Part shown: positions 296-20,000 of the stretch, piece by piece | Numbering within the stretch: position 1 is the stretch's first letter | Layout: each line of letters opens with the position of its first letter | Assembly (NCBI GenBank): GCA_964522015.1 | Contig: CAZFST010000012.1 | Span: forward strand, 17,605 to 41,604 | Length of the DNA stretch: 24,000 nucleotides | Direction of reading: 5' to 3' | From: an uncultured Fusibacter sp. | Lineage (GTDB): Bacteria; Bacillota; Clostridia; Peptostreptococcales; Acidaminobacteraceae | Made by a program: the position numbers and the translations under genes | Notes under the pieces: model-generated | Seen by the model: the letters and a program-made list of their open reading frames with translations, nothing else | Databases searched by the model: none | What the model was told of the DNA's origin: nothing

Positions 296-1015
296 CTAAG
301 AAATCTCTGAGATGATTCGCTCTTTAACGCTCTTAATATGTGCCTTGCTCACTGGCAGGCTCACATCACATGCTGCTATGTAGATTTCATTATTACGATA
401 ATAGCTGACTTTTGATGCACTGATTAGGTAGCTTTGATGGCATCTTAAAAACCGAGCCATATCCAGCTTCTCTTCAAGTTCTTGATAAGAGGCATAAAAC
501 TCAATCTCGCCGCCTTTATAGACGAGTTTGATTTTACGGAGATTCTTTTCAAAGTAATAAATATCATAGTATTTTATAGTGAAATTACCTTCTTTTGTGT
601 CAATATGTAAAACTTCGTTTTGATCCTGCTGAATTAATTTTAGTCGCTGGACGACGGTAAGCATGATTTCGTTAAACCTTTTGTAGGCAATGGGTTTAAG
701 CAGGTAATGATAGGCACGCACACCAAAAGCGTCAAATGCGTAATCCTTATACCCGGTGATATATATTAAAATAGGTTCATCTACCAGCTCTCGGATTAAG
801 CGTCCACAGTCAAGGCCATTCATGCCCGGCATCTCGACATCCATCAAAAATACATCATATCGCTTGCCACTTTTCAAAGCCTGTAGCAAGCTTTCAGCAT
901 TTTGATGGACGTCCAGGGTATAGGGTGTCTTTTGTGCCGAAAAGAACATGGTTAGGTAATGTTTTAAAATTTGAACTTGTTCTGGCTGATCCTCGCAAAT
1001 TGAAATTAAGTACAT
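296..1015 (-). CDS. LytTR-family response regulator (AgrA-like)
   Basis: 239 aa. The N-terminal receiver has the acidic start (ICEDQ) and the phospho-acceptor context YDVFLMDVEMPGMNGL, plus LLKP. The C-terminal half has the LytTR pattern (IYYFE...FLRCHQSYLIS...). GGAGG lies 5 nt upstream of the ATG. Confidence 0.9.
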   Translation of the reverse strand: MYLISICEDQPEQVQILKHYLTMFFSAQKTPYTLDVHQNAESLLQALKSGKRYDVFLMDVEMPGMNGLDCGRLIRELVDEPILIYITGYKDYAFDAFGVRAYHYLLKPIAYKRFNEIMLTVVQRLKLIQQDQNEVLHIDTKEGNFTIKYYDIYYFEKNLRKIKLVYKGGEIEFYASYQELEEKLDMARFLRCHQSYLISASKVSYYRNNEIYIAACDVSLPVSKAHIKSVKERIISEIS

Positions 1016-1216: not shown

Positions 1217-2233
1217 CTAACAATGGGGGCAATCCACTTCCCGGTGAAAAATATCACTTCTTCCCGCAAGTGTGGACTTATCAATCACAAACACTTGATT
1301 AAATGGAATTTGAGCATCTTCCAATAAAAATCTAAAATGGTCACCCTGTGTATACAGTATGATTCGGGTAATGAAGCCCATCAGGATATTGCGAAAAGCT
1401 AATGACAGACTATTAGGTGCAAAATTCTCTCCATAGGTATTATGCCACTGTGAAAGACATGCTAAACAGCCGCTTTCCTTAGGTATTACCAAGGGTCCCA
1501 TTAGGATCGATTGCTCGTCAATCGTCATAAAAAGGACTCTCTGATTTAAAGTTTGTGCCATTTCATTAATCTCAAATAACCATTCCCGATTTTTCTCTTC
1601 TTTAGGCGCTAAATGCAATACCCAAGGTTTATTGGCAACTTGTGTCTTCACTTCTGATGCCTCAATTACCGTAATTTGATTCCCAAATTTCTTTTGAAGA
1701 TGCACGGACTTCAGTTGACCAAGTTGATTGACTTGAAAAAGTGAATTGTTGAGGTCAGCAACTTCTACGGTTTCTCCATAGTTAACCATCAATACACATC
1801 CTGCACCTTGTTTTCTCAAGAGTTCAACTAAATCCAGTGCCAGTATCCCCAAGCCATGAATGACAAAAGTACTTTGGGCCAGAGGCGTCACATCAAAATG
1901 TGCCGTCGGCAAGAATTTATTGATCTGGAGGGTATCCTGTAAAGTAGCCCAGTCATATGAAAACTTTGCCGCCTCTACACTGATCTCAATAAACATCTCG
2001 GGATATTTACCATACAGTTTGCCCATCAGAGGACCAAAGGTCCCTTCCAGTAGAGCACCAAGTCTGACTGGTAAGCGGATGGCATGTTGTAAAGCTGCTA
2101 AATTGACCGCATAAGGTATGCGTAGTACTGCTAAAGACTTTTCCGTATCATAAACCATCAAATGATCAGAATGATCTTGAAAAAAAACATATCTTGAATT
2201 CCACTGCACAATTTGAACTGCTTCCCCTGACAT
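1217..2233 (-). CDS. E1/ThiF-like (SagC-type) azoline-synthetase partner protein with a CxxC...CxxC zinc site
   Basis: 338 aa. It has a Rossmann-like stretch (VIHGLGILALDLVELLRKQGAG), a GPLVIPKESGCLACL motif typical of E1-like cyclodehydratase partners, and a C-terminal CPHC. GGAGG lies 4 nt upstream. It is the last gene of the biosynthetic operon. Confidence 0.5.
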   Translation of the reverse strand: MSGEAVQIVQWNSRYVFFQDHSDHLMVYDTEKSLAVLRIPYAVNLAALQHAIRLPVRLGALLEGTFGPLMGKLYGKYPEMFIEISVEAAKFSYDWATLQDTLQINKFLPTAHFDVTPLAQSTFVIHGLGILALDLVELLRKQGAGCVLMVNYGETVEVADLNNSLFQVNQLGQLKSVHLQKKFGNQITVIEASEVKTQVANKPWVLHLAPKEEKNREWLFEINEMAQTLNQRVLFMTIDEQSILMGPLVIPKESGCLACLSQWHNTYGENFAPNSLSLAFRNILMGFITRIILYTQGDHFRFLLEDAQIPFNQVFVIDKSTLAGRSDIFHREVDCPHC

Positions 2234-2242: not shown

Positions 2243-3082
2243 TTATCCCACCACAAAAACGTACATGGCCGTTTGAAATGGGGCCTCAAGTTTCAGATAA
2301 TCATTGATACGTTCTTCAAAAAAACCACCCAAGGGAACCGATTTCAGACCCATCATTTCGCAGACAAGCATGATGTTTTGACCGATATGGCCTAATTCTT
2401 GGTATATTAGACGATAGGATAGGGAGTTATACTTCTTCTCTATAAATCGCGTATTACCCACTAACACCACTAAAAACTGTGCATCGTCAAATGGATATAG
2501 CCCAAATTCTGAAGCCGATGTCAAGCGGTTAAGTTCACTCAAGTTCACAGGGTGCAGTGCACTTAGAATCGTATTCTTTTCTTCAAGTCTATATGCGCAA
2601 GCCTCTCCCATGACCTGGGAGCGACTTGCCAGCTTTTCAGTCGGTAATAAGTAAATATCAACGGGATAAAACCTCCCCCCCGAAGGATAAGTCCGGGTCT
2701 GTTCCTTTGCATCGCTTTGTCCAAATGCATAGCCCATAAAGTCCAATAGATTCTGGTCTGACAAGGCTGAGTTCTTAAAGTTCCAAGAACTTCTACGCCC
2801 TAACAGGGCCTGACTCAGCGGCATTTCAAAAGGTGACAGTTCAGAAATAGTCGGCAAATGTGCTACCTCCCGACTTGGCACAAAGGGGGTGCTAATCCCC
2901 TTTAACCGGTCTTGATAATCACTTTTAGGCGCTCTTATTGACTGAGTGTGGGGAGAATGTTTTGAGTTCTCGTGATACATGCGGTAGAGATACGTTTGAG
3001 CATCACTTGCCCCCGAAAAATCCCACAGCGCCCCGCCCTTTGGCTGTGGACTTTGTACTTGTATTTCTTTGATCATCATCAT
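2243..3082 (-). CDS. SagB-type / nitroreductase-fold FMN dehydrogenase (short form)
   Basis: 279 aa. RTYPSGGRFYPVDIYLL matches the SagB-type dehydrogenase signature (PSxGxxyPxeiY). Its ATG overlaps the upstream stop (TAATG), indicating translational coupling. Confidence 0.7.
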   Translation of the reverse strand: MMMIKEIQVQSPQPKGGALWDFSGASDAQTYLYRMYHENSKHSPHTQSIRAPKSDYQDRLKGISTPFVPSREVAHLPTISELSPFEMPLSQALLGRRSSWNFKNSALSDQNLLDFMGYAFGQSDAKEQTRTYPSGGRFYPVDIYLLPTEKLASRSQVMGEACAYRLEEKNTILSALHPVNLSELNRLTSASEFGLYPFDDAQFLVVLVGNTRFIEKKYNSLSYRLIYQELGHIGQNIMLVCEMMGLKSVPLGGFFEERINDYLKLEAPFQTAMYVFVVG

Positions 3083-3966
3083 TAACCAACCCGTCTTTCG
3101 TGAATCAAAGCGCTTACTTCAGACAATAAAAACTCAAATTGGGGCGAAACACCTAGTCGATTATTGGTCATGTGAATGTGTGAGGCCAATAGACTATTTC
3201 TTGCAATCATCCCATCAGGATATGTGGTTTGCTGCGTTAAAATTGCCTCTAAAGCCGCTTTAAGACATTGGTGCCACTTGGCATAGGGTGTCTGTGAAAT
3301 GGCACCGATGATCTGTCGCTGCCGTTCTTGATAGACCTTCATATAGTCAAAAATCAGTTTGTTATAGTTTAAGTGTTCAGATTTATGACTTGACCAAATC
3401 TGGCTATAAATATGATAAAACTGACTTTGATTTTCTGCTAAGCAGGCTGCAATTTGAAAAAGGTCTAAGCTGATAATCATTTTTTTGGAGATTGTCATTT
3501 TTGGATCTTTCAATAGCTCTAATACTAAATCACTGGATGCCTCAAATAGACGTTCGGAATGGTCCATGACTCCTTGACCACCATACCGTTCAAACTCTGG
3601 TTCATAAGGTTTTGCAACAACACTGCCTGAAGAAAACCAATAAAGTGCATTGGCTGAAACGGGAACACCATCAAATGTGTGATTTTGATAGTACTGTTCA
3701 GATTCAAGGCTTATATTATTGGGATAGGCGCGATTAAATCGGTCAAAGGCACTTAAAATTGCCATCTCAACACCCATATCCTCAGATTGTGTCTTAATAA
3801 ATCGCAAGCGAATATGGGGACCTCCCTGCCAGTACCGTATAAAAAAATACTGCTGCAATCGCTTATCTTCCTTGAGTGTTTCTAATGCCAGTTGCAGATA
3901 GTCTCGTAAAAAGATATCTTGAATCTCGTATGTGTGAATAAAAAAGTGAAAAGCAAGCCAGTTCAT
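3082..3966 (-). CDS. SpaB_C-fold (thiopeptide-type bacteriocin biosynthesis domain) protein; candidate [4+2] pyridine synthase
   Basis: FFIRYWQGGPHIRLRF matches the hallmark FxRY..GGPHxRLR motif of the LanB C-terminal/thiopeptide-type domain. I place the start at the ATG at 3964-3966 (MNWLAFHFF...), which has AGGAGG 7 nt upstream, rather than the track start at 4011. About 294 aa, similar in size to TclM/TbtD-type enzymes. Confidence 0.6.
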   Translation of the reverse strand: MNWLAFHFFIHTYEIQDIFLRDYLQLALETLKEDKRLQQYFFIRYWQGGPHIRLRFIKTQSEDMGVEMAILSAFDRFNRAYPNNISLESEQYYQNHTFDGVPVSANALYWFSSGSVVAKPYEPEFERYGGQGVMDHSERLFEASSDLVLELLKDPKMTISKKMIISLDLFQIAACLAENQSQFYHIYSQIWSSHKSEHLNYNKLIFDYMKVYQERQRQIIGAISQTPYAKWHQCLKAALEAILTQQTTYPDGMIARNSLLASHIHMTNNRLGVSPQFEFLLSEVSALIHERRVG

Positions 3967-3970
3967 GATG

Positions 3971-5452
3971 TCACCTCCTTTTTGGTAACAGCAATGGTAC
4001 AACATTTCCAATCGGTAAATTCAAATGCCGGCTATTCCCCTTGCCAATTAGTATGGCATAGAGTATCCGTTGATCTGAAGCCAGTAGAAGTGTTGATTCC
4101 AAATATTCATCATTAAAATTCTTAATAGGTCTTGCATATAGATCGAATTGAGAAGCTACTAAACAGATGTACTGTGCTATTTCGCCACTATTTAGATGAT
4201 GGTAATAGCAGTGGTCTTGATCGGACCAGTCCTCCTGATCACTAGCTACAATAAAAATGACCATTGGATGACTTGCCATATTAAAGTAGTGATGAGAATC
4301 ATTTAAAATTTTGTCGGGTTCGGCACTCACTTCCTGACTGTGGCCAATAACATCTGGAAGCGACCTAACAGGCACTAATCCTCCCTGGTTGGTTAATTGA
4401 AAAATATGCATCGCCTTTTCAGAACTTCCCATTTCGGAACTTTCCGTCTCAGGACTTTCCCTTAAAGCAGCATAAATTGACAGTGTCCCAGATGGACCTC
4501 TCTGCTGCTTCAACATTTCTGAAAGTGTACTGAAGAAGTGATGATAGGTTTCTTTGGATAGACTTGTCCAAAGACTATGGAGGCCCATGTGCGTATGATG
4601 TGATTCTCTAGCCTTGATTTGTGCCATCATCCTATCAAGGGAATCTGCCTTTTCTACCCGGTAGGTTTTTGTGACTTGCTTTTGAGGTTGATGGCAATGG
4701 TGCCTCAAAGTTTCAACCTCTTGATACGCCGAGATTTCAGTGGTATAGTCTTCTCGGCGCTCTATGGCCGGTTGGGATATGTTCCCGTGATGCCATGGAT
4801 AAAACTTGGTTAGAGACGAGATTCGAAGCGAAAAAACAACCATCTGGTTATTCGATTTATCTCCAATGGCTGTTAAAAACGCCTCCCGATTTTTGAGAAA
4901 GTCCACATGGTAGGTTAAATCCTCAGCGCTACCCAATAGAAATTTCAATTGACCAAGAATATGACCTGCATCCAGCATGGCAAGTGCTGCACCAAATGCG
5001 CCATAGTACTTCATAATCCGCCATAAATCGGCTACCACAATGATTTCGATATCTGAATCATTGACTTGAGTATGGGTTCCATCCAAAGGTTCTGGATTCA
5101 AACCCGCTAGCCACTCAAAGTCATTTAACTTCGGATTGAATCGTAAAATATTGCCATTGAGGTACAAGTAGCCCTGGTTAGGATGCATATTGCGGGCGGA
5201 AGGGACTGCCTTATGGAAAATATAGGGGTTATCACTTTGCTGGTTCAAGATCCCAAACGTCCAAGTATAAAGTGACTTCAGCCATGACCACTGCGGGTCA
5301 TTGATGCAACTTGAGATAGTCACCGGGTAGACAGCGCCCTTGATATCCGTTATCAGGTGGTCAACAAATGTGACGGATGGTTGCTTTTTATGGGTTTGAT
5401 AGCGCAACCGGGTCATGTTTTGGTAAATAGTCAGTTCTGACGTCGCTTTCAC
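3971..5452 (-). CDS. SagB-type azoline dehydrogenase (long, two-lobed nitroreductase fold)
   Basis: 493 aa. AVPSARNMHPNQGYLYL matches the SagB-type PSxxxxhPxxxY signature. The start is uncertain. The track start is a GTG fused directly to GGAG, which is bad spacing, and the next ATG (5414-5416) has no SD. The gene may be translationally coupled to the YcaO stop at 5457. Confidence 0.65.
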   Translation of the reverse strand: MKATSELTIYQNMTRLRYQTHKKQPSVTFVDHLITDIKGAVYPVTISSCINDPQWSWLKSLYTWTFGILNQQSDNPYIFHKAVPSARNMHPNQGYLYLNGNILRFNPKLNDFEWLAGLNPEPLDGTHTQVNDSDIEIIVVADLWRIMKYYGAFGAALAMLDAGHILGQLKFLLGSAEDLTYHVDFLKNREAFLTAIGDKSNNQMVVFSLRISSLTKFYPWHHGNISQPAIERREDYTTEISAYQEVETLRHHCHQPQKQVTKTYRVEKADSLDRMMAQIKARESHHTHMGLHSLWTSLSKETYHHFFSTLSEMLKQQRGPSGTLSIYAALRESPETESSEMGSSEKAMHIFQLTNQGGLVPVRSLPDVIGHSQEVSAEPDKILNDSHHYFNMASHPMVIFIVASDQEDWSDQDHCYYHHLNSGEIAQYICLVASQFDLYARPIKNFNDEYLESTLLLASDQRILYAILIGKGNSRHLNLPIGNVVPLLLPKRR

Positions 5453-5456: not shown

Positions 5457-7223
5457 TCAAGGAAAAGGATGGGGACAAAGATTGAGTTGCTCTAACGAGA
5501 TGGCCTTTTCTCTAAGACCTGCATAAACTGGAGCCGTTGCAATTCTTTCAAAATTGATACGCCTGTTTTGGTGCCCAAATGTCATGGTTAACATAGATGG
5601 CACAATGGATTTGACGCAACTTAGGTCCATGGTTTGTGTCAAGGTATTCTCCATATTAGCGATATAGACAGTTGGGTGGTAGGGCTTGAAGCGGCTGATA
5701 ACCTTATCAAGGGTTACGACCTCTCTTGGTGAGTGATTATACCAATCTGGAAATGCTTTTTTAAAAGCCGCCACATTAGGCGTGTTTATTGCAAAATCCA
5801 AGTGATGATGGTGCGCTGCCAGTCCATGAAAATAGACATGTTGTTCCATTTCTCGTACCTTATTTGGCTTGTTCAGCAGCGATGCCATGATCTCTTGTTT
5901 ATCTGGTGTTGCTAGTAATTTGTTATAGACTGATAAAGAAGTGATTATCTCCACAAGTGCGGCTTCCAAAGCCTTTTCTGGGTCCAGATGTGCCCCTGCC
6001 GCTGTATAAGATTTGAGCGCCCCAGTTCCCTCTTTATCCACCACAAGTGCCCAAATTGCAGGTATCTTTGTCTCCAGTGTGATGTTGAAAATTGAAATAC
6101 TGTACCCTTGAGTTTCAATGTATTGGATCATTCTCATAATCTCGACATTATCTAAATCCTCTAGGGTTAAGCGAATTGGTGGCAGTCCGTTATACCAGTG
6201 AACTAAAAAGCTATCTCGCTCAACGACTTCAAATAAACTAAACACAATTGCTTCTTCTAAAGTACCCCCGACAGCACAGCCATTTGAGGTTTCGTACAAA
6301 AAACGGGCTTCAGGTGCGACTTCTTGATTGTCAAAATAAACCGCCTGTTCTGGCAAATAAACCGTCTCTTGCTTAAAATAGTCAAGGCAGGGGGTCCATC
6401 TATAGCTCCCTTTAGCATCATATGGTTTTAGGGCAAAACCTGGTTCTAAAAATTGTTGTTCAGTCGGTAGCGATAGGGTTTCCGGGTTGCAAATTTTCTT
6501 GGTTTTTGATAGTTCTTGATAGCTCCCACACAGAGGCGCTTTTAGATGTGGCACCATGGAGGCATACCGTTCAATCATTTCTAATGCGGCTCCATATTTT
6601 GCATGGGTTAAATCAGGTGTTCTGCCATATGAAAAATACTGTCGTTTACCCATCCTTGAATCAATGCAATACATGGGCATTACCGCTGAAGAGGCGTCTC
6701 TAAAGATTCGTTTACCAATCCCTGTATGGGGATCAATCAGTTGGTGCAAGGCGAATCCTTCTGGAAATAGGGTCTCTATGGTTTTAAATCGCATGGTGTC
6801 TGGAAATGGTCTATGGCGATCAAGGGTTTGTGCCCCTGCGCTGTTTGTCTGTTCTTCTAGTTGGTGGCTTTCGCAGCGGAAGAAGGGAAGTAATAGATGT
6901 CTTGAGAGAGAGCCATCCTCAGTGCGTCTAATCCAAAGTACATTTTCGCAGTCCTTTTCAACGGCTTGAAGTAGTTGGTAATCAACCGGTTGGTGGATGA
7001 GGGCTTGTTCTTGGATCGCAAGTAGACGCTGGTGGTGTTCACTTTCGTTGGCAGCTAGTACTTCCAGTGCGCAGTTCAAACAGGCGGCTCTTGGTTGACC
7101 ATCTGATAAGACACCGATATAGGTATAGCCAAAGCCTTCATAATAAGCTAAAACTCGATCCCCTTTTGACAGCAGGCTATTGTACCCTTCACGACTTAAG
7201 TTATGGGCAATAATATAGGACAT
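5457..7223 (-). CDS. YcaO cyclodehydratase with an N-terminal E1-like extension
   Basis: 588 aa. YETSNGCAVGGTLEEAIVFSLFEVVERDSF is the canonical YcaO ATP/substrate-site motif (SNGxAxG...EA...E..ERD). The N-terminal portion of about 190 aa carries CLNC and FFRCESH. AAGGTGG lies upstream of the ATG. Confidence 0.9.
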   Translation of the reverse strand: MSYIIAHNLSREGYNSLLSKGDRVLAYYEGFGYTYIGVLSDGQPRAACLNCALEVLAANESEHHQRLLAIQEQALIHQPVDYQLLQAVEKDCENVLWIRRTEDGSLSRHLLLPFFRCESHQLEEQTNSAGAQTLDRHRPFPDTMRFKTIETLFPEGFALHQLIDPHTGIGKRIFRDASSAVMPMYCIDSRMGKRQYFSYGRTPDLTHAKYGAALEMIERYASMVPHLKAPLCGSYQELSKTKKICNPETLSLPTEQQFLEPGFALKPYDAKGSYRWTPCLDYFKQETVYLPEQAVYFDNQEVAPEARFLYETSNGCAVGGTLEEAIVFSLFEVVERDSFLVHWYNGLPPIRLTLEDLDNVEIMRMIQYIETQGYSISIFNITLETKIPAIWALVVDKEGTGALKSYTAAGAHLDPEKALEAALVEIITSLSVYNKLLATPDKQEIMASLLNKPNKVREMEQHVYFHGLAAHHHHLDFAINTPNVAAFKKAFPDWYNHSPREVVTLDKVISRFKPYHPTVYIANMENTLTQTMDLSCVKSIVPSMLTMTFGHQNRRINFERIATAPVYAGLREKAISLEQLNLCPHPFP

Positions 7224-7225
7224 AT

Positions 7226-8884
7226 TTACACCACCTTGCTAAAACGGCCAACAAAAAATCCAGCGGGTGCAATGGCATCTTGATAAACCCATGGTTCTTC
7301 TTTCACTAAAATACCCTTTTCAAAAAGTCTATCCAGTACAACAGCCTTAACACTCTCCATATCTTTAGGCTCTAAGGCCACTGAATCTCTATTGTCCATT
7401 TGAAATTTCCCACCGATTGTCACACCAAAATCCCGTGGTCGATAGTCATCTATTTGTTGTGGTTGTGTGTTTTGTGCATAGCCTATTAGCGTATATAAGC
7501 CCTCTAATATGGCATCTTCTAAGGCATATGTGACCTGGCTTTGCCACATGATATCCAGGGTCTTCTCATTTTGTAGTAAAACTCTACCTACATCTGTACC
7601 AAGCACGGACTGATAATGAACCTTAAGATCTAAGAAAAACTGATTCTTACAATAGTTTTTTAGTGCGGCAGCTTCCTCATTTAACAGAACAGGCACCACA
7701 TCTTGATACACAAATGGTCTTAGGGCACTGATTAATCCAGCTAATTGAAAACTTTGTTCATCTGATTTGCAAATCCAGACCCCCTTTTCTTCTGATAGTT
7801 CTGGTGTAGAGTGATCTTCATGCAGTTCTGGAGCAGCCTGTTTTTCTTGCAAGTAATTTAAAAAACCACTCAACCCATCTGAAATAGCCCGTTCTGCGGC
7901 ATTCAGATAATCTAGGTGAAACCCTACAGATGTATACACTTGCTCACCTCTATGTAAAGTCACCTCGTAACATGCAATTGGGGATTGCTTTGGATATTTA
8001 GCCTTCAAATTTTCGTTTTTGAAAATGTGTGGCATGATACCTTGTAACTGTTCAAATGCAACTACCTGTTCTAATTTTGTACTCGGTACCGAGACCCGTC
8101 TTCGGTGATAAGGTAAGGCAACCGTTGCCATACTCTCACCGATTTCAAAATGATCGACAACACCATCGGCTCGAATAATTCTTGTATTTAGGGCGTTTGA
8201 ACGGATTTCATGTTCAAGGATATGAAAAAGTACGTTCTGTCCAATAATGGCATTGGCAAGTGTCGAATAAAACCGTCCCTCAAGTGGGTATTGTTTAAAT
8301 TGATCCAGGGTCGATTGGTCATAATATTTTAACACTAATAGACCATAGGCATCTCCTACCCTCTTAATCACAAGGACCTTGCTACCACTTTGGAGGCTTG
8401 CCTGAATTAAACTAACATTGTCAACTGATACAATCACCCAATCTGCGTAGTCAGTTGCAACTAAGCAACTGATCCCATGTTCTTGAAAGTAATCCTGTAC
8501 GGAGCACGGGACTGCTGGTTCATCTGCTATGGCAACTTTTATGGCGCTTAACTTATTGAGACAAGCATCGTGATCGGTGTAGTTCATGGTGATGTATTGC
8601 TTTAATGTAGCTGAGAGATTAAATTCTTTTTCGCTGATCTGGTATAGGGTATTCACTTGTATCAGTGCTTTGACCCACCTTTGAATCTCTTCTGAGCTTA
8701 ATTGAACTGTTTCGTATAAACTTTCAATCGTTTGTGGTTGTGAGCACTGACTGATAATCTGCAAGACACCTTGATAAACAGCTTCTGACGCTTTAACTTG
8801 ATAAAACTTTCTATTAACAGTAAGCTGCATTAGAGATGACTGGGCATTGTACCGCACAAATGTATTATGTTTTGATTGGAGCAT
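7226..8884 (-). CDS. Ocin-ThiF-like / leader-binding partner of the YcaO (TclI/TbtF-type)
   Basis: 552 aa. Its stop lies 2 nt before the YcaO ATG. Its size and position match the ThiF-like partner in thiopeptide clusters. The N-terminal portion of about 90 aa could be a winged-helix RRE. I recognised no strong motif, so the call rests on context. Confidence 0.5.
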   Translation of the reverse strand: MLQSKHNTFVRYNAQSSLMQLTVNRKFYQVKASEAVYQGVLQIISQCSQPQTIESLYETVQLSSEEIQRWVKALIQVNTLYQISEKEFNLSATLKQYITMNYTDHDACLNKLSAIKVAIADEPAVPCSVQDYFQEHGISCLVATDYADWVIVSVDNVSLIQASLQSGSKVLVIKRVGDAYGLLVLKYYDQSTLDQFKQYPLEGRFYSTLANAIIGQNVLFHILEHEIRSNALNTRIIRADGVVDHFEIGESMATVALPYHRRRVSVPSTKLEQVVAFEQLQGIMPHIFKNENLKAKYPKQSPIACYEVTLHRGEQVYTSVGFHLDYLNAAERAISDGLSGFLNYLQEKQAAPELHEDHSTPELSEEKGVWICKSDEQSFQLAGLISALRPFVYQDVVPVLLNEEAAALKNYCKNQFFLDLKVHYQSVLGTDVGRVLLQNEKTLDIMWQSQVTYALEDAILEGLYTLIGYAQNTQPQQIDDYRPRDFGVTIGGKFQMDNRDSVALEPKDMESVKAVVLDRLFEKGILVKEEPWVYQDAIAPAGFFVGRFSKVV

Positions 8885-9995
8885 AGACTTGAAAACCCCT
8901 TTCTTTCATAATTTGTTGCCACGATGTGTCATATTTAAAAGACACAAAACGAGAAATTGCATAGCATAGAAAGTGCTTTTGTTTAAAGTCAATATTGAGA
9001 AAAATCAAACTGTTATATAGGACATTTGTTAGGGAGCGGTGCACTAAGTGCTCTTGACTCGATGCGACATCTTCCAGTGCCCCTGAGCTCAGTAGATTAT
9101 CATGGAATGAGCTTTCAATAGCAGATACATTGGTTTTCATTTGTTGAATTTGATCTTGAAGGTTATAGAACCCTTCTTCTTGAAAGCCTTTTTGGTTGAA
9201 TAAATCCAATGTTTCTTGGTAGAAATCCTTAAATACTGCCATGGCTTCTTTTAGTGTGTCATCTTCAACTAAGTGACTATCCAGTTGATCCACATCTAGC
9301 TGGACGTACATATCATTAAAATATTGTTCAAAGGCATCCTCAACACCATATTGTTTTGAAAGTGCCAGCATTCCCTGACTATGGGAATAATATTGAAGCG
9401 CACCATACTTTTCACCATGGGGATACAGTAACAAGAGAATTTGAAATATTTTTAGTAATACAATTTTCTTTTCTGTGCCACTGTCGTCATATTTTAAGAG
9501 CACTGTGTTCAATATGGGTTGAAGTTGCATCCGTGCACGGCAGTGCAGGGCAAAGTGTCTAAATGAATTGTAAAGTTGCTTGTAATAACTTGGATTCAAA
9601 TCAGAACGTACTAATTTGCCGTGTAAATTGCCATCAATCGTCGATACTTCTTTTTTCTCCATCTGACCCAGGGTTTGTGCGTGTTTTGTATAGAGTTCCA
9701 ACTGCTTTTCTATGGCCTCAGGACTAAAAGAATGCCCCATTGCAATGATAGCCTGATCAACACCACTTCTCATCTCATTCAAGAGAGCTGCATCACCTGT
9801 TTGTGGCAAAAGATAAATAATCTGATAGTGGGGACCACCATTCCAATCCCGGGTAATATAGTAGGGTGTTTTGATTAACTTCTGGCAAAGCGGTACTAAA
9901 GCTTCTTTTAAAAAGACGCGCTTTTGTCTTTCATCGCCAAAGTGATAAATCTTCATCATGCCAAGATCAGTAAACTGCTCAATGATCACCTTCAA
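8865..9995 (-). CDS. SpaB_C-fold protein; candidate glutamate-elimination half of a split LanB dehydratase
   Basis: 376 aa. YYITRDWNGGPHYQIIY is a diverged copy of the RY..GGPH.R.R motif. The gene lies directly after the large LanB-N gene. The start is a TTG at 9993-9995 with GAGGAGG 7 nt upstream. The nearby ATG at 9998-10000 is only 2 nt from the SD and hits a stop after two codons. Confidence 0.6.
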   Translation of the reverse strand: MKVIIEQFTDLGMMKIYHFGDERQKRVFLKEALVPLCQKLIKTPYYITRDWNGGPHYQIIYLLPQTGDAALLNEMRSGVDQAIIAMGHSFSPEAIEKQLELYTKHAQTLGQMEKKEVSTIDGNLHGKLVRSDLNPSYYKQLYNSFRHFALHCRARMQLQPILNTVLLKYDDSGTEKKIVLLKIFQILLLLYPHGEKYGALQYYSHSQGMLALSKQYGVEDAFEQYFNDMYVQLDVDQLDSHLVEDDTLKEAMAVFKDFYQETLDLFNQKGFQEEGFYNLQDQIQQMKTNVSAIESSFHDNLLSSGALEDVASSQEHLVHRSLTNVLYNSLIFLNIDFKQKHFLCYAISRFVSFKYDTSWQQIMKERGFQVYAPIKT

Positions 9996-10010: not shown

Positions 10011-10066
10011 ATTGTTATCCTGTTTTAGTGGTTAATCTATTGTTATCCTGTTTTAGTGGTTAATTC
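10011..10066. repeat. Tandem 28-bp duplication spanning the 3' end of the LanB-N gene
   Basis: ATTGTTATCCTGTTTTAGTGGTTAAT occurs at 10011-10036 and again at 10039-10064 (26/26 identical). The right copy encodes the last residues and stop (LTTKTG*), and the left copy is a non-coding echo in the intergenic spacer. Confidence 0.9.
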
Positions 10067-12706
10067 TATTTGGTACTCATGAATATAGGTCTCATCCTGA
10101 TTATTTGGGTAGACTTCTTCAATAGACACCAATGTCCCCGGTTCCCAATCCGACATAAATTCCCGGAATAATAAGGGGCTTGCTAAGTCAATAAACTGGG
10201 GTTTTAAATCAGTTCTGCCCATATTGACATAGTCTATTGCCATATCGCCAGTATACTTTTTCATAAAAAATTGGGTAGGCACCCCTTCAGCCAAGAACAA
10301 GGAAATGATTTCAGCGTAGCGTTCACTGTCACTCAGCAAGGCCTCAGATTGGATATTCCTTATTAGCCAATGACGCCTGATTAAGGTCATGCTGCCATAG
10401 GTGATTCGCGGAATCTTATCTTCGATAAAACAACCCCTCAGCTGATTTTCCTGATCTAAAGCTGCAGTACCCTCTGGAACATCTGATGATTTCAATTTCG
10501 TTTTTAAGAGCTTTAATTGGCTGACATCAAAACGGGTATTACGATTCATCCCAAGTAGTCCTTTTAAAAGGGATGGCATTAACACATAAACCAGTGAACC
10601 AGCAAAGAAAGGGGAAATTTCTTGTCCCTGTGGACCAAATAATTTAACCATTTGCGTTGCTGCATCATACTTAAAATGACAATGGTGAATATTGAGTTCA
10701 TCAGTTGCCCCGGACTGACCACTTAGTGATTCAGAAAATGGTAGCATTAACCGTTTACTTGCAAATGGGATATGAACATTTGCATTAAATCCAAAAGCTT
10801 CCAATACCTCAATCTTATTTTCAGCATCAAATACCTGATTGCAGTACTGTTGGTAATCATTTTGTTCATACACCCAAGCGTAGTCCTTATAAAATCGTGA
10901 AAAGAACGATTGAAAGCCACTATAAACTTTATTCAAGACCATACCATCTGCCCCATGTTGGTAAAAAAAAGTGGTGGAGTAAGACGTATTTGACTGATGA
11001 ACGATCCTTGGGATTCTTTCAATCAGACCGTCTAAAATTGCATCAAAAGCGACGATATCTTGACCTGATTGTTTAGCAGTTTCTATGGCTGTCACAAATT
11101 CTGCTTTCAACCCCATAGTCTGATCAATCACCTCATGGCCTGATGGCGCCAGTGCTGCGAGTCCATCCTTCCAAAGAGAAACGTGTTTACCACCGGTTTG
11201 TGAATAAATGTGATAGACATCAAGATTATCAGCTGCAATTTTATCCTCTCCGTATATTTCATAAAACTGCTTAGAAAACAGTGCATAAATCGGATAACTC
11301 TGGTCTAATATCGCTGTAAAGTGTTGTAGTTTTGAAAGTGTCGCCAGTTCTTGATCACTGACGGTTGTATTCATCAATGTCGATTCTGTTGTCGGGAAAA
11401 ACGTATCTTCATAAATCAACATATCTAAATTGACATCAACCCCTACGAGTATGTTGATTGCTGCCATTTCTGCCTTTACTGCAGAAATCAACTGATAGCG
11501 CTTTGGCCCTTCTACTTGTCCAAATGCCTGTGTCAAATTATGACACACCTGAAAATGCTCTATGATTGCAGCGAGTACACCTTCTTGACTATCTTGAAGA
11601 TCACTCACTTTTTGTACAAATGTGGTGTGAATACATGGCACAAATTCTGAAAGTGTTGTTATGGGAACTAACATTTGCGACTTAATTAGGATATCCTCTA
11701 AAAAATAAGTCGCTTTTTCCTTTGTCACCAATGTTTCTAGATACTTTAAAAGATCGTTATATGACCTTGTACTTTGGCCAATCCAGTCTATAAGATTTGC
11801 CATAATCACATTTTTCTTAATTGTCATATTGTGGTCAATGGATTTATAGACTTTGCCTTTATTCGGGTCTCTTTGGGTTAAAAAATAATAATGTTCAGGA
11901 TATGTTTGGTAAGAAGCCAAACGATAGCTCAGTTGCTCCCTTACAAAGGGTAAATTTAAAATACTATCAAATACCTTGCGATACACAAAATGATTGAGTG
12001 CAGCAGCATGTGCGATTGAATCCTTTTCATGGGGCTTATTTTGAGTATTTTGAAGTGGTGTTTCAACGGATTTTAGAGAATTTGTGGCACTACAAATGCC
12101 AACCTTACCAAGATCAACTGATGTCAGTGTGCTAAAGGGACTTGTTTTTTTGGTAGCACGAGTCAACAGTCTAGCCAATTGATGATCGAGTTTTCGCTGT
12201 TTTGTTTTATGTTCATGGGCTGGTATTGTCAAATACTTACCAAGACTATGATGGAAATCTGCACTGATTAGGGGCAGTGCTTTTGACACCAATGTATCCC
12301 TTTGAAAAAAATCTTGCAACATACGACGGTTTTCTTGGTAGGCTTCTTCAAATGCAGTTGCAAAGGTTTCTGTATTTGCCATGAAAGCCCCATGGGAATT
12401 TTGATACCCTATGACAATTGAGGCGATATCTTCTGGTAACTCATGGATCTGAGTGTCCGTAATCTTTGCCAAGCGAAACATTTTACGTTTGATATTGAGT
12501 AATCGATTATCTTTAGAATTTGAAAAAGCTAGTTCTAATTGTGCACACGCATTTTGCATGACTGTCAATAATGAAGTCTTACTCTCAACGCATTTCCCCA
12601 TATGTGCCAAGAGAGTCGGTGCGTTAAGTGAACGCACCACCCCTTGAGGAACATTGGTGCGCCTTTCAATATAATAGGGAAATAGCAGTTGATTTTTCAT
12701 GGGCAC
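10043..12706 (-). CDS. Lantibiotic-dehydratase N-terminal (glutamylation) domain protein, split LanB type
   Basis: 887 aa, the size of stand-alone LanB-N proteins in thiopeptide/goadsporin clusters. A SpaB_C-fold gene follows immediately, and Ser-rich precursors lie upstream. GGAG lies 8 nt upstream. The assignment rests on size and context, since I could not verify a motif by eye. Confidence 0.65.
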   Translation of the reverse strand: MPMKNQLLFPYYIERRTNVPQGVVRSLNAPTLLAHMGKCVESKTSLLTVMQNACAQLELAFSNSKDNRLLNIKRKMFRLAKITDTQIHELPEDIASIVIGYQNSHGAFMANTETFATAFEEAYQENRRMLQDFFQRDTLVSKALPLISADFHHSLGKYLTIPAHEHKTKQRKLDHQLARLLTRATKKTSPFSTLTSVDLGKVGICSATNSLKSVETPLQNTQNKPHEKDSIAHAAALNHFVYRKVFDSILNLPFVREQLSYRLASYQTYPEHYYFLTQRDPNKGKVYKSIDHNMTIKKNVIMANLIDWIGQSTRSYNDLLKYLETLVTKEKATYFLEDILIKSQMLVPITTLSEFVPCIHTTFVQKVSDLQDSQEGVLAAIIEHFQVCHNLTQAFGQVEGPKRYQLISAVKAEMAAINILVGVDVNLDMLIYEDTFFPTTESTLMNTTVSDQELATLSKLQHFTAILDQSYPIYALFSKQFYEIYGEDKIAADNLDVYHIYSQTGGKHVSLWKDGLAALAPSGHEVIDQTMGLKAEFVTAIETAKQSGQDIVAFDAILDGLIERIPRIVHQSNTSYSTTFFYQHGADGMVLNKVYSGFQSFFSRFYKDYAWVYEQNDYQQYCNQVFDAENKIEVLEAFGFNANVHIPFASKRLMLPFSESLSGQSGATDELNIHHCHFKYDAATQMVKLFGPQGQEISPFFAGSLVYVLMPSLLKGLLGMNRNTRFDVSQLKLLKTKLKSSDVPEGTAALDQENQLRGCFIEDKIPRITYGSMTLIRRHWLIRNIQSEALLSDSERYAEIISLFLAEGVPTQFFMKKYTGDMAIDYVNMGRTDLKPQFIDLASPLLFREFMSDWEPGTLVSIEEVYPNNQDETYIHEYQIELTTKTG

Positions 12707-12712: not shown

Positions 12713-13447
12713 TTATGCTTCGCGATTTTGATGTAGTTTAAAGAATGAAAGACAGATTAGCGTTGTCACGCCTAAGGCAGCAGCATTGATCCAACCAACT
12801 GACTGTTGGTTCCACATGGCAATTGAGATTTGATTCATATGGTAGACCGGATTAACATATACAAAATACCGTGCAATTTTAGGTAGTGCTTCGATTGGGA
12901 ACATCATACCAGAAGCAAATAGAACATATTGAAATCCCAAAATCGTAATTGGTGTTACTTGCTTTGAGTTCTTAAAGAATCCATGAATAGACAAGCTGAC
13001 AATCAACAAAATTACAATCATCACGATAAAGGCTAGGGTAAATGGGACTAAGTTTGCTGTAATCGGCATACTAAAAACTAGTTTTGCGATTCCAATCATC
13101 TCCAGTAAACCAAGCAAAGAAATGATAATACCTCTTACAATGTAAGTGCCGGTGATAAAAAAGATATTTGTTGGCGATACAATAATTCGTTTATAGACAC
13201 CAGTTTCACGATCATTGACACTTTGTAACCCGATATTGAAGAAAATCGTCATAAAAGATATTAGGATCACATAGAGTGGAATATAGGTACTCGCAAATTT
13301 AGTGACGCCATACTGGGCATAAATTGAAGTGAAAATCATGAAAAATATAGCTGGTACTATTAGGATTGGTAGTGCAAACATCGGTTCTCTGAAGAAGATC
13401 AGAAAATCATACTTCACTTGCTTCCAGAAAAAAGCATATTTAGCCAT
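12713..13447 (-). CDS. ABC-2 type transporter permease
   Basis: 244 aa with about six hydrophobic segments. Its ATG overlaps the ATPase TGA (ATGA). Confidence 0.75.
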   Translation of the reverse strand: MAKYAFFWKQVKYDFLIFFREPMFALPILIVPAIFFMIFTSIYAQYGVTKFASTYIPLYVILISFMTIFFNIGLQSVNDRETGVYKRIIVSPTNIFFITGTYIVRGIIISLLGLLEMIGIAKLVFSMPITANLVPFTLAFIVMIVILLIVSLSIHGFFKNSKQVTPITILGFQYVLFASGMMFPIEALPKIARYFVYVNPVYHMNQISIAMWNQQSVGWINAAALGVTTLICLSFFKLHQNREA

Positions 13448-14166
13448 CAGCTCACACTCCTGTCGATCATATCGAAGTAAACATCATTGAAAAACAGCCT
13501 GTTATTTTTGTTTTTTAGATTTTGAGGTGTATCATCAGCAACTACCTTGCCGCCATTTAAGATGATTGCCCGATCACAAAACTTATCTATTTCTTCCATT
13601 GAATGTGTCGTTAAAATGATGGTACTGTTTTTTTGCTTGATGGCATTGATTTTATCCCAAACAATTTTAGAAGCTCTGGGGTCTAAACCAGTTGTTGGTT
13701 CATCCAAAAATATCAGTGCTGGATCGTGTAAAAATGTAATGGCTAAGAGGCAACGTTGCTTCCAGCCCCCAGATAACTTACAAAACTTTGTGTTCAGGTA
13801 TGGCCCTAGCTCAAATTCTTCAATAATTTCATTTACCCGTTCTCTTTTAACGCCGTAAAAACTGCCAAAAAGATCAAGTGCCTCTTTTATCTTAATGTAG
13901 TTGTACATGCCACCTTCTTGAAGAACAATTCCAATTTTTGATCGAATTTCATTCATGTCTTTTTGAACATCCAGACCCATGATTTCTACTGTTCCACGGT
14001 CGTATTTTCTAAGCGTCATGAGAATTTCCATTGTAGTCGTTTTTCCAGTGCCATTGGGTCCAACTAAAGCCACTATTTCACCTTGGTTGATTTCAAAGTC
14101 AATGCCTTTTAAAACCTGTTTATCGCCATACGCTTTGTGTAGGTCTTTAACCTTGACAATTTGCAT
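13447..14166 (-). CDS. ABC transporter ATP-binding protein (export/immunity candidate)
   Basis: Walker A is GPNGTGKTT, the signature motif is LSGGWKQR and Walker B is LIFLDEPTTGLD. Confidence 0.93.
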   Translation of the reverse strand: MQIVKVKDLHKAYGDKQVLKGIDFEINQGEIVALVGPNGTGKTTTMEILMTLRKYDRGTVEIMGLDVQKDMNEIRSKIGIVLQEGGMYNYIKIKEALDLFGSFYGVKRERVNEIIEEFELGPYLNTKFCKLSGGWKQRCLLAITFLHDPALIFLDEPTTGLDPRASKIVWDKINAIKQKNSTIILTTHSMEEIDKFCDRAIILNGGKVVADDTPQNLKNKNNRLFFNDVYFDMIDRSVS

Positions 14167-14202
14167 TTTTTACCTTCTCTCTCTATCCGCTTTCAGATGA
14201 CA

Positions 14203-14224
14203 GGGGTTGGGTTTAACCAACCCC
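14203..14224 (-). promoter_or_regulatory. Intercistronic stem-loop between the precursor genes and the ABC/biosynthetic genes
   Basis: GGGGTTGG-GTTTAA-CCAACCCC forms a perfect 8-bp GC-rich stem. No U-run follows it on the minus-strand transcript, so it is more likely an attenuator or mRNA-stabilising element than a full terminator. Confidence 0.5.
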
Positions 14225-14274
14225 ACTCATCATTGTTAATTCACCTTTTCAGTTCTAGGTAAACTCAAGGCTAC

Positions 14275-14463
14275 CTATTCAGCAGCGGCCTCTACACTCC
14301 CGCCACCACAGCTGACGCATGATGACGAACCGCAGCATGAGCAGCTTCCGCAAGAAGATGAACCTGATGTTGCACCTGTTTCATTTAAAAGCGCCGCTTC
14401 TGAAATTTCCATGATTTCTAAATCTTCGATTGCTACCAATGTGTTGTTTTTTACTTGATCCAT
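14275..14463 (-). CDS. RiPP precursor peptide, copy 2 (S56 variant)
   Basis: 62 aa: MDQVKNNTLVAIEDLEIMEISEAALLNETGAT / SGSSSCGSCSCCGSSSCVSCGGGS / VEAAAE. AAGGAG lies 9 nt upstream. The stop codon is TAG. Confidence 0.9.
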   Translation of the reverse strand: MDQVKNNTLVAIEDLEIMEISEAALLNETGATSGSSSCGSCSCCGSSSCVSCGGGSVEAAAE

Positions 14464-14558
14464 ATGTTTGTTCTCCTTTGTTTGTGTAATTTTAGCTCAT
14501 TATTTATTTAAGGGTTGAGTTTACGCTTGCATTGACAATTAAAAACTGTTTGGTATGA

Positions 14559-14747
14559 TTATTCAGCAGCGGCCTCTACATTGCCACCACCGCAGCTAAC
14601 GCATGATGACGAACCACAGCATGAGCAGCTTCCGCAAGAAGAAGAACCCGATGTTGCACCTGTTTCATTTAAAAGGGCTGCTTCTGAAATTTCCATAATT
14701 TCTAAATCTTCGATTGCTACCAATGTGTTGTTTTTTACTTGATCCAT
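14559..14747 (-). CDS. RiPP precursor peptide, copy 1 (N56 variant)
   Basis: 62 aa, identical to copy 2 except N56 for S56. It has the same RBS. The stop codon is TAA. Confidence 0.9.
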   Translation of the reverse strand: MDQVKNNTLVAIEDLEIMEISEAALLNETGATSGSSSCGSCSCCGSSSCVSCGGGNVEAAAE

Positions 14748-14984: not shown

Positions 14985-15085
14985 TTTTGGTCAACAACCT
15001 CTGTAAAACGGCTTATTTGAAGGGTTTCATGATTTAACAACTCTATATCTGCAATAAAATATCGCTTTCAACTGAAATCATTCAG

Positions 15086-15721
15086 TCAAAAGCGATAAGG
15101 GTTAAAGAGATAATTGTTTTTGTACTTAACTAAGGTTAAAGCTACCATCAATATGGATATGACAGCCACGTTTACGTAGACTGACAGTGATTCAATTGTT
15201 GCACCGCTTAAAATCATGATGACAAGGAAGGCTGTAACCCGGTAAGTTTGCTTTCTTTTCAAAACCCAACTTTGGTCCACCTCTTTATCAATTCGATCAT
15301 CTTTGTTACCATTTTCAGCATTGTCCACTTGATTATCGACATCATCTTTGTTCGCAAATTGATAGATTAAAACCAGTGCCACAACGAGTAATGCCATCGC
15401 AAAATATCTGCTCGTGTTAAATGTCATATTAACACCCATCCAAGTAGTTAGAATACCTAACGATGTGGTCACGATAGTACAACGGGTCAAAGTTGCCATA
15501 TGAAATCCGCCAGTCGTCTGGCGGAGAGTGGCAAAGATGATCATAAAAATGATCATTTCAAGTAATTTATGTGTTAATATCCCGGCAATCAAAAGACATA
15601 AGATGATTTGTAATGTGTTCATGCTCACACGGAGGCCATATTGGATTAGATCCATTTGATCCTTTGTGTATGTGCCAATCAATTGCTGGGCAGTATGATC
15701 ACTTTGATTTTGGCGTTTCAT
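15086..15721 (-). CDS. agrB: AgrB-family membrane peptidase (accessory gene regulator B)
   Basis: A polytopic membrane protein with GGFHMATLTRC, which gives the AgrB catalytic His and Cys at i and i+7. I place the start at the ATG at 15719-15721 (MKRQNQ..., 211 aa). The track start at 15763 is a TTG with no SD. Confidence 0.85.
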   Translation of the reverse strand: MKRQNQSDHTAQQLIGTYTKDQMDLIQYGLRVSMNTLQIILCLLIAGILTHKLLEMIIFMIIFATLRQTTGGFHMATLTRCTIVTTSLGILTTWMGVNMTFNTSRYFAMALLVVALVLIYQFANKDDVDNQVDNAENGNKDDRIDKEVDQSWVLKRKQTYRVTAFLVIMILSGATIESLSVYVNVAVISILMVALTLVKYKNNYLFNPYRF

Positions 15722-15809
15722 ATAAAAATCCCCATTTTGGCTGATTAGTTGCTGATGCCCCAACTTTAAGCAATGTGTTCATCGTAATTTGAGTAAGTGT
15801 GATTTTCAT
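15699..15809 (-). CDS. Unannotated 36-aa ORF; candidate AgrD/FsrD-like autoinducer propeptide
   Basis: MKITLTQITMNTLLKVGASATNQPKWGFLYETPKSK. AGGAGG lies 5 nt upstream of the ATG at 15807-15809. The ORF overlaps the agrB start by 23 nt. The C-terminal ETPKSK resembles the E-x-P-K tail of AgrD/FsrD propeptides as I recall them. It is below the track's size cutoff. Confidence 0.4.
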   Translation of the reverse strand: MKITLTQITMNTLLKVGASATNQPKWGFLYETPKSK

Positions 15810-15882: not shown

Positions 15883-15943
15883 ATCATACCCCAATAGTAT
15901 TTTTTAATCAGATGGATGTACGAATTGTCCATTGAAATGTAAG
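15883..15943 (-). promoter_or_regulatory. Candidate LytTR-activated promoter of the agrD-like/agrB unit
   Basis: On the minus strand: CTTACATTTC (15934-15943), 12 nt, GTACATCCA (15913-15921), 2 nt, -35-like TGATTA (15905-15910), 16 nt, then -10 TATGAT (15883-15888). The geometry matches the precursor promoter. Confidence 0.4.
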
Positions 15944-15960
15944 AATTGTGTGTTAATTTT

Positions 15961-19985: not shown

Positions 19986-20000
19986 CTGAGATCACGCTGA

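Follow-up and report, generated by a model that had tools for sequence, protein, structure and literature searches.

Lactazole-like clusters make up 251 of 508 predicted thiopeptide clusters (PMC7210931), and yet lactazole A, encoded by the laz cluster of Streptomyces lactacystinaeus, was as of 2020 the sole characterised product of this group, with a biological role given as unknown in the lactazole literature. In its precursor, LazA (...PENGA followed by SWGSCSCQASSSCAQP), the pyridine is formed from Ser1 and Ser12, the part played by Ser12 having been shown experimentally (PMC7210931; bioRxiv 10.1101/2020.05.12.092031). The mature peptide contains dehydroalanine at residue 10 (Dha10), an oxazole at residue 11 (Oxz11) and a thiazole at residue 13 (Thz13), and residues 4-7 become Ser4-Thz5-Dha6-Thz7 (PMC7210931). 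The S10-S11-S12-C13 stretch is kept in more than 60 lactazole-like precursors, with S-T-S-C counted as a variant of the motif (bioRxiv 10.1101/2020.05.12.092031, Fig. S23). Here we analyse a 24,000-nucleotide (nt) stretch of DNA from an uncultured Fusibacter sp. (contig CAZFST010000012.1; the whole stretch is referred to as the window), which carries two nearly identical small genes that a preliminary description, made from the sequence alone, had taken for thiopeptide-type precursors. By analogy with lactazole, we consider these to be probably the tandem functional structural genes of a ribosomally made lactazole-like thiopeptide, standing at the head of an accessory island of ~17 kb.

Both genes are 189-nt open reading frames (ORFs) on the minus strand of the window, listed as such by the ORF program, and both translate to MDQVKNNTLVAIEDLEIMEISEAALLNETGATSGSSSCGSCSCCGSSSCVSCGGG(S/N)VEAAAE, which includes the stretch ...SGSSSCGSCSCCGSSSC.... 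Copy B (14559..14747) encodes 62 amino acids (aa) with Asn at residue 56 and ends in TAA, whilst copy A (14275..14463), also of 62 aa, has Ser at residue 56 and ends in TAG. The two ORFs and the 12 differences that had been counted by hand were reproduced exactly by script, with the same coordinates: ten are synonymous, one lies in the stop codon, and one is nonsynonymous (S56/N56). The ribosome-binding site, AAAGGAGAA, is identical in front of both copies, and the more distant flanks have diverged. With ~42.7 synonymous and 143.3 nonsynonymous sites in the pair, the ratio of nonsynonymous to synonymous substitution (dN/dS) is ~0.03, and under neutrality no more than one nonsynonymous change in 11 would be expected with a probability of 3.5e-6. 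Both precursor copies are thus held under purifying selection, as the preliminary description had proposed.

A second strain, represented by two contigs from a sequencing run other than that of the window (L006 and L018), carries the same genes. Contig L018 runs through agrB and ends at ...MDQVK, and L006 starts at ...LNETGATSGSSSCGSCSCCGSSSCVSCGGGSVEAAAE followed by the stop codon; because both contigs end inside a precursor, the assembly of the second strain must have broken within the duplicated gene. The L006 fragment shares the C-terminus of copy A (...CGGGSVEAAAE, then stop) and shows synonymous changes only. Compared with copy A it differs at seven nucleotides, 7/7 of them synonymous, and 4/7 carry the state of copy B, which suggests exchange between the precursor copies.

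The precursors pass the thiopeptide-specific family models. Pfam Thiopep_pre (PF19409) is matched at E=1.4e-10 (copy A; 41 bits, the cut-off being 23.5), NCBIfam thiazolyl_B (NF033400) at E=6e-10 and 9e-12 (8.7e-12 for copy B; 39-45 bits against a cut-off of 30), and NCBIfam thiopep_precurs (TIGR03892) at 28 bits against a cut-off of 25. Together with the full enzyme set found downstream, these matches bear out the assignment to thiopeptide-type precursors. Relatives were found by three routes. A word-indexed search returned three precursors, one from Longirhabdus pacifica, and 3/3 stop at ...SCGGGN without a follower; a direct DNA scan of metagenomes, where the preliminary description had proposed to look for homologues, added nine more loci; and 1.84 billion representatives, searched exhaustively with a profile, gave 53 precursors. 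A genome scan with a three-sequence YcaO alignment matched only Longirhabdus pacifica, and the same scan with the YcaO of the window alone as query gave no match.

Residues 33-56 of the window precursors consist of 11 Ser, 6 Cys, 6 Gly and 1 Val, and the core does exceed classical thiopeptide cores in length, as had been noted. The view that this composition is unusual and heterocycloanthracin-like was not borne out. A core of only Ser, Cys and Gly is common to ~60 relatives, some of them from human-gut metagenomes, with the family pattern ET[GA]A-[T/S]-S-G-x-S-S-[C/S/T]-x-S-[C/T/S]-S-[C/T]-C-G-S-[S/T/C]-S-C, in which the variable positions interchange Cys, Ser and Thr, as azole-forming sites would. 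The Ser/Cys/Gly-rich core is therefore a trait of the whole precursor family and not peculiar to the window. A protein with the same extended core, WP_067140220.1, already stands in a published alignment of lactazole-like precursors (bioRxiv 10.1101/2020.05.12.092031, Fig. S23); we found no paper that prints the present core sequences in the searchable literature, a coverage that stops short of full precursor census lists.

Gene order is kept in the relatives as well: precursor(s), ATP-binding cassette (ABC) pair, LanB-N, 376-like, 552-like, YcaO, 493-like, 309-like and 279-like genes follow one another in Longirhabdus pacifica and eight metagenome loci, at a protein identity of 20-42%. Twin precursors occur in L008 (604-1133), L013 (9748-10153) and L014 (9763-10153), where the copies are far more diverged than the window pair and differ in both core and follower (e.g., ...ASLGVSSCASCSCCGSTSCISCGFGGDSSSN and ...ATSGSSSCGSCSTCGSTSCISCGSGQTSLAK). 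In these relatives one enzyme set would apparently serve two distinct substrates. Another relative, P0047 (43 aa), has lost an internal part of its core in frame (...ETAATSGSCISCGSGTTSV), in a way that looks like a recombinational joining of the two S-G-S...S-C stretches; this copy is probably dead. The human-gut loci L009-L012 adjoin genes such as are usual on conjugative elements, for a relaxase-like protein and a 2303-aa helicase/methylase (L011:1-9700; also L009 and L012), and such neighbours suggest horizontal spread in the gut.

Downstream of the precursors, on the same strand, lie the ABC pair and eight maturation genes; for comparison we used Laz proteins translated from the Laz genes in the supplement of PMC7210931. 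The ABC transporter ATPase (13447..14166; Pfam ABC_tran, E=1e-29), whose gene adjoins the precursor in most related loci, and the ABC-2 permease (12713..13447; Pfam ABC2_membrane, E=5.5e-13), which is syntenic in the relatives, presumably act in export or immunity. Next comes an 887-aa protein resembling the split LanB glutamylation enzymes LazB and TbtB (10043..12706). It matches Pfam Lant_dehydr_N at E=1.7e-6 (26.9 bits, slightly below the 28-bit cut-off) and TbtB in the PDB (6ec7) at E=2.4e-7, and its gene is present in all related loci. Elimination would be carried out by a 309-aa protein (3082..4011; Pfam Lant_dehydr_C, E=8e-44), the equivalent of the N-terminal domain of LazF (residues 10-290; blastp E=1.3e-15, hhalign 98.6%), and the C-terminal domain of LazF (residues 338-547) has its equivalent in a 279-aa azoline dehydrogenase (2243..3082; blastp E=5.7e-10, hhalign 84%). 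The latter matches Pfam Nitroreductase at E=1.4e-18 (68.1 bits against a cut-off of 23.5), and its SagB score, 75.9 against 78.4 bits, lies just under the cut-off.

The YcaO cyclodehydratase, which would form azolines, is encoded at 5457..7223 (E=7e-66 with Pfam YcaO; 266 bits with NCBIfam TOMM_cyclo_SagD, whose cut-off is 219). A 493-aa SagB/McbC-type dehydrogenase-like protein (3971..5452; gene-called as 481 aa) is conserved in the relatives and matches NCBIfam antibiot_sagB (E=3.6e-12) and Pfam Nitroreductase (E=1e-4), both under cut-off. An E1/ThiF-like protein of 338 aa (1217..2233) has weak PDB matches to UBA5 and MccB and a weak match, below cut-off, to leader-binding domains of thiazole/oxazole-modified microcins (NCBIfam cyclo_dehyd_2, E=9e-8). 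The position of LazC is occupied in all loci by a 376-aa candidate [4+2] pyridine synthase, LazC/TbtD-like (8865..9995). It matches NCBIfam TbtD_PbtD_pyrid at E=7e-13 over its C-terminal half only (48 bits against a cut-off of 325) and LazC by hhalign (73%, E=3e-5), and phmmer against the PDB gave no match. Between this gene and the YcaO gene, at the position of the YcaO partner LazD, lies a conserved 552-aa orphan (7226..8884), which is present in every locus of the cluster family (orthologues in L001, L002, L006, L009, L011, L013, L014 and L015). No Pfam, NCBIfam or PDB match was obtained for it, either with the single sequence or with an eight-sequence profile, a homologue search was negative as well, and its AlphaFold2 model has a predicted local distance difference test (pLDDT) score of 32. 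Its predicted N-terminal order of strand-strand-strand-helix-helix-helix is only a faint hint of the recognition element of RiPPs (peptides that are made on the ribosome and modified after translation).

Apart from the pyridine synthase, which is a candidate with weak support, the thiopeptide features that can be read from sequence are all represented: a YcaO enzyme with an azoline dehydrogenase, a split LanB dehydratase for tRNA-Glu-dependent glutamylation and elimination (887 aa and 309 aa), and precursors whose leader is of the thiopeptide type and whose core is rich in Ser, Cys and Thr. Between copy A and the ABC genes lies an RNA hairpin (14196..14231, minus strand; inverted repeat I3) without a U-tract, conserved in L006, with a fold of -33.3 kcal/mol (z=-4.95). 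It is probably a transcript-stabilising or attenuating element and may set the ratio of precursor to enzyme transcript.

By analogy with lactazole and other thiopeptides, we propose the following pathway. The leader (residues 1 to ~31, with the ...EDLEIMEISEAALLNETGA pattern) would recruit the enzymes. The YcaO protein and a partner, the 552-aa and/or the 338-aa protein, would turn Cys and some Ser residues into azolines, which the two dehydrogenases would oxidise to azoles, and the split dehydratase would convert other Ser residues to dehydroalanine (Dha), the 887-aa protein glutamylating and the 309-aa protein eliminating. The 376-aa pyridine-synthase homologue would then join Dha48 to an N-terminal Dha, derived from S37 (32-membered ring) or S33 (~44-membered ring), closing the macrocycle and expelling the leader as an amide. 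The tail, C49-V-S-C-G-G-G-(S/N), would be retained on the product, with VEAAAE most likely cut off by a peptidase in the manner of QDM of LazA, and the ABC pair would export the product. Expression would probably be controlled by the agr-type module (AgrB, LytTR regulator and kinase) that bounds the island. The two copies would yield products differing solely at residue 56 (Ser or Asn).

Which serines close the ring is best approached from the C-terminal side. Both copies contain the lactazole-like motif as S46-S47-S48-C49, and relatives have S-S-S-C, S-T-S-C or S-C-S-C at this place. We compiled a position table of 56 relatives with standard spacing, limited to those that have both C44 and S48. 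In 55/56 of them S, T or C stands at residue 47, and 17/56 stop two to six residues past S48, often as S-C-C-S-S, akin to canonical thiopeptide tails. Because S46-C49 matches the lactazole motif and these 17 relatives have canonical tails past S48, Ser48 is probably one of the pyridine-forming residues, as Ser12 is in lactazole, and we prefer it over Ser42.

Ser42 had been put forward in the preliminary description, which considered conceivable a thiocillin-like 26-membered ring with Ser33 as residue 1, Ser42 as residue 10 and C41-S42-C43-C44 corresponding to thiocillin C9-S10-C11-C12; a tail of 14-20 residues would trail such a ring. In its favour, residue 42 is Ser in 56/56 relatives, which the selection rule does not force, only C, T or S occurs at residue 43 and only C at residue 44, residue 33 is Ser in 54/56, and the divergent relative P0029 keeps C-S-C-C with the S-S-S-C motif absent. 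However, the equivalent C5-S6-C7 of LazA lies within the ring, where it is converted to Thz-Dha-Thz and takes no part in the pyridine. Residue 41 is His in P0056 and Asn in P0061, and so is not azole-capable in 2/56; the most conserved block past S42, G-S-[S/T/C]-S-C, would be reduced to tail; and every member would have a tail of at least eight residues from Ser42, unlike known thiopeptides. Nor does the window show the thiocillin-type combination of an S1-C2 start, C9-S10-C11-C12 and a tail of ~4 residues, residue 2 being Gly and the tail 14-20 residues long. Given the conserved S46-C49 motif, the 17/56 tails counted from S48 and the His or Asn at residue 41, the 26-membered ring appears improbable.

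With Ser48 as one pyridine-forming residue, the partner serine would be S33 or S37. An unguided MAFFT alignment placed LazA S1-C13 on window S37-C49, and in the register with S37 as residue 1, 10/13 positions are identical to LazA and the core has the classical S1-C2 start. This clean lactazole register, with its 32-membered ring, was the one that we favoured at first; after the exhaustive profile search it was weakened by the variability of S37 and by the leader junction. The junction ...ETGA is homologous to ...PENGA of LazA, the relative P0044 has a LazA-like leader followed by SSGSSSC..., and the published alignment draws the boundary between leader and core after GA, even for WP_067140220.1 (bioRxiv 10.1101/2020.05.12.092031), all of which points to S33 as the partner serine. 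In the window the junction reads ...NETGA-T-S, with Thr32 between GA and the first Ser; 31/56 relatives have Ser at residue 32. The ring would have 32 members for S37-S48, 35 for S36-S48 and about 44 for S33-S48. Characterised natural thiopeptides have 26-35-membered rings (PMC7210931), but Laz enzymes in vitro make rings of 14-62 members and accept tails of 18 residues, and a ~44-membered ring is therefore chemically plausible.

Several facts tell against these assignments. The invariance of C44 and S48 in the position table follows from the selection rule, which required both, and Ser42, in its thiocillin-like C-S-C-C context, is also invariant. Neither candidate for Ser1 is strictly so: 4/56 relatives have Ala, Gly, Phe or Leu in place of S37, and 2/56 have Leu in place of S33, both of the latter with Ser at residue 32. 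Moreover, Thr32 between the GA junction and S33 has no precedent among characterised thiopeptides. Conservation does not discriminate between S33 and S37 as the partner, so that a ring of either about 44 or 32 members is possible. A macrocycle closed between S33 and S48, with ~44 members and with the AgrB of the island perhaps also trimming the follower, is a tentative proposal that we think less likely to be right than wrong. If it were true, the whole Firmicutes/gut subfamily would produce natural thiopeptides well beyond the 26-35-membered range of all characterised ones.

The VEAAAE follower is real, though it is no acidic device of a special kind but one among many C-terminal extensions that vary. 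It is missing from the three closest database homologues. Other relatives have, past the conserved tail, AATMEAAR, GASTVKAD, AVSIST, QTSLAK, TTEVAAQ, DTSI, VEVEVEKTAPAPVEPSIADN, QQLDESVGEESY and others, so that followers are common, variable in length, acidic only sometimes and without a shared motif. LazA ends in ...CAQPQDM, between 3 and 12 additional, variable residues are found on its homologues, and lactazole A stops at Pro16 without QDM (PMC7210931). The window precursors share with the lactazole-like group the presence of such an extension. As QDM is absent from mature lactazole A, trimming of VEAAAE by a peptidase is the most likely fate by analogy. For the expected mass of a product we used M(core) - NH3 - 3 H2O - 20.026 per azole - 18.011 per Dha, which, applied to the lactazole core to Pro16, gives [M+2H]2+ = 701.203 against the published 701.20.

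Residue 56, just ahead of the follower, had been proposed as a possible site of a Dha56 or a C-terminal amide in the Ser copy. We found no NosA-type amidation enzyme in the island, and the residue is N, S, D, T, A, Q or G across the family, Asn being the commonest in close GGGN-type relatives, three of which terminate at that Asn. Since residue 56 varies family-wide, the S56/N56 difference needs no special chemistry.

The gene directly upstream of the precursors encodes a 211-aa AgrB-family membrane peptidase (15086..15721, minus strand; ORF and gene call; Pfam AgrB, E=5e-26) at the upstream end of the island. It contains a GGFH-x6-C stretch, presumably with the catalytic His/Cys pair of AgrB, and a homologue search returned only AgrB itself and the sister strain protein. 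AgrB might itself act on the thiopeptide precursors and remove VEAAAE, the four residues from C52 to the follower having the geometry of an AgrD thiolactone. It is the only recognisable peptidase of the island; we found no Pfam AgrD match among the ORFs of the window, L013 and L014; AgrB stands next to twin precursors with followers in the distantly related L013 and L014; and the follower-less relatives stop exactly at ...CGGGN, Longirhabdus having no AgrB within 19 kb. On the other hand, L015 and the human-gut loci have followers and yet no AgrB in the 3-10 kb upstream, and followers share no common motif. A terminator-like hairpin with a T-run (15060-15097) follows the agrB stop codon, so that agrB is likely to be transcribed separately. 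The real AgrB substrate could be the product of a conserved 36-aa ORF that has a strong ribosome-binding site, and the LytTR-box upstream of agrB, together with the LytTR regulator and the AgrC-like kinase, agrees with a quorum-sensing module of the ordinary kind. We therefore think it distinctly improbable that AgrB processes the thiopeptide precursors.

A quorum-sensing module that probably controls the cluster is the simplest reading of these genes. The 36-aa ORF (15699..15809, minus strand; MKITLTQITMNTLLKVGASATNQPKWGFLYETPKSK) contains no Cys, has a strong Shine-Dalgarno sequence and overlaps the start of agrB. In the second strain it is gene-called and 34/36 aa are kept, whereas AgrB is only 82% identical there. 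It has no Pfam match, and its role as an AgrB substrate, in the manner of an atypical agr-type signalling peptide, is speculative. None of six small ORFs near agrB has a Pfam match, to AgrD or otherwise, and no agrD lies downstream of agrB. The precursors were rejected as AgrD propeptides, as they match Thiopep_pre only, and so was a 32-aa ORF with a TTG start downstream of agrB, which has no ribosome-binding site and differs in its N-terminal residues in the second strain. Upstream of agrB, a direct repeat, ACAATTC[G/T]TACAT x2 with 21-nt spacing (15916..15949, minus strand; repeat family D1), has the geometry of a LytTR-box and is conserved in L018. These are the only zero-mismatch copies in the window, and a scan of the window found no such motif in front of the precursors. 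At the other end of the island are the AgrA-like LytTR-type response regulator (296..1015, minus strand; Pfam Response_reg and LytTR) and the 5' part of an AgrC-like histidine kinase (1..271, minus strand), which has a membrane segment and runs off the window; the full gene, in L005/L006, has SPOB_a and HATPase_c_5. In L013 and L014, too, an AgrB, a regulator and a kinase come ahead of the twin precursors.

The least probable alternative, and in our view a very improbable one, is a linear, goadsporin-like azole/Dha peptide without a pyridine, the 376-aa protein not being a cyclase: this protein's pyridine-synthase match lies under the NCBIfam cut-off and covers half of the model, with no phmmer match in the PDB and 73% against LazC by hhalign, goadsporin clusters likewise join a YcaO protein, a dehydrogenase and a split LanB, and the 887-aa protein faintly matches a goadsporin biosynthetic protein (9jhq, E=0.16), but the precursor passes thiopeptide-specific family models, its leader aligns with that of LazA, with P0044 linking both, there are two SpaB_C-type genes where elimination needs one only (309 aa), the 376-aa gene stands at the lazC position in all loci, and no leader peptidase is evident apart from AgrB.

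The extent of the island follows from the related strain L017 (~84% nt identity in the flanks), in which M20 peptidase and HD genes are followed directly by a decarboxylase gene. In the present genome the decarboxylase gene sits beyond the kinase. Because L017 has the flanking genes adjacent (comparison at L017:1810-1861 and L005:14003), the DNA from ~16029 to ~1.2 kb past the window start is a ~17-kb accessory island, which comprises, in order, agrB, the two precursors, the ABC pair, the eight maturation genes, the response regulator and the kinase. Elsewhere in the window (17871-23493) there is an oxidative-stress block composed of a Fur-family regulator, desulfoferrodoxin, a ferritin-like protein, rubrerythrin and an 866-aa fusion with flavodiiron, rubredoxin and NAD(P)H oxidoreductase domains, which indicates an anaerobic host of low guanine-cytosine (GC) content.

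Beyond the choice of serines, a lactazole-like thiopeptide is the reading that we prefer, and the following points weigh against it. The subfamily includes no member with an observed product, so that all of the chemistry is by analogy. The exact precursor peptides are absent from a collection of 15 billion proteins in which proteins of the neighbouring genes are present, and hence the precursor genes were never gene-called in that public collection. The assignment of the pyridine synthase rests on sub-threshold matches, and neither the 552-aa nor the 338-aa protein has any similarity to LazD by blastp, phmmer or hhalign. The window enzymes are only ~22-25% identical to Laz proteins, a remote relationship; the functions of LazF are split over two genes, so that neither the fusion nor the compact five-enzyme set of laz is found; and the window has three genes extra to laz, for the 493-aa dehydrogenase-like, the 338-aa E1-like and the 552-aa orphan proteins.

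As it stands, the window offers a compact, complete and island-borne cluster with two natural variants of the precursor, in a genome of the low-GC, anaerobe type. It is a practical entry point to the product of the Cys-rich subfamily, its ring size and the purpose of the variable C-terminal extensions, in a family some of whose members are carried on conjugative elements in human-gut metagenomes. The 552-aa orphan protein and the agrB arrangement are worth attention beyond the question of the ring.

How, then, does the locus compare with known systems? Heterocycloanthracin-type peptides share the dominance of Cys, Gly and Ser, but these are linear azole peptides that SagBCD-type enzymes make on their own, whereas the window adds a lanthipeptide-type dehydratase and a pyridine-synthase homologue, and its precursors are of a thiopeptide family. 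Goadsporin has in common a Ser/Cys/Gly-rich core that is modified by a YcaO protein, a dehydrogenase and a split LanB; it differs in having no pyridine synthase or thiopeptide-type leader, the window having in addition a second SpaB_C-type gene and similarity to TbtD/LazC. The thiocillin/micrococcin (tcl) system of Bacillus cereus combines a Firmicutes host with tandem identical precursors (tclE-H) and separate genes for LanB-N, LanB-C, pyridine synthase and dehydrogenase. The window resembles it in host, in its tandem precursors and separate enzyme genes, in C-S-C-C within the core, and in matching TIGR03892 and PF19409, which cover thiocillin-type precursors. It departs from thiocillin in a core of 24-30 residues instead of 14, in Gly instead of Cys at residue 2, and in S-S-S-C downstream of C-S-C-C, a long tail and a follower.

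Lactazole differs from the window in its Streptomyces host, the window being of the Firmicutes-type, low-GC kind; the window core is five residues longer between the GA junction and the C-S-C block, has six Cys against three, and would give a ring without aromatic or polar residues. The window has no detectable LazD homologue, and thus no LazD-type partner bearing a RiPP recognition element, and its island includes two precursor genes, an ABC exporter and agr-type regulators. What the two have in common is a leader end close to the ...PE(N/T)GA pattern, the core motifs S-x-G-S-C-S-C and S-S-S-C (the 10/13 identities when S37 is residue 1), a gene order that runs LanB-N, pyridine synthase, (partner), YcaO, both halves of LazF, to which the 309-aa and 279-aa proteins correspond, and a variable C-terminal extension, as in the QDM of LazA that is absent from the product. 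Judged by its sequence, the locus thus has the core-motif and follower features of the lactazole-like group and lacks the fused LazF, the five-gene set and LazD; it is no new kind of system but an uncharacterised thiopeptide cluster of an already known type.

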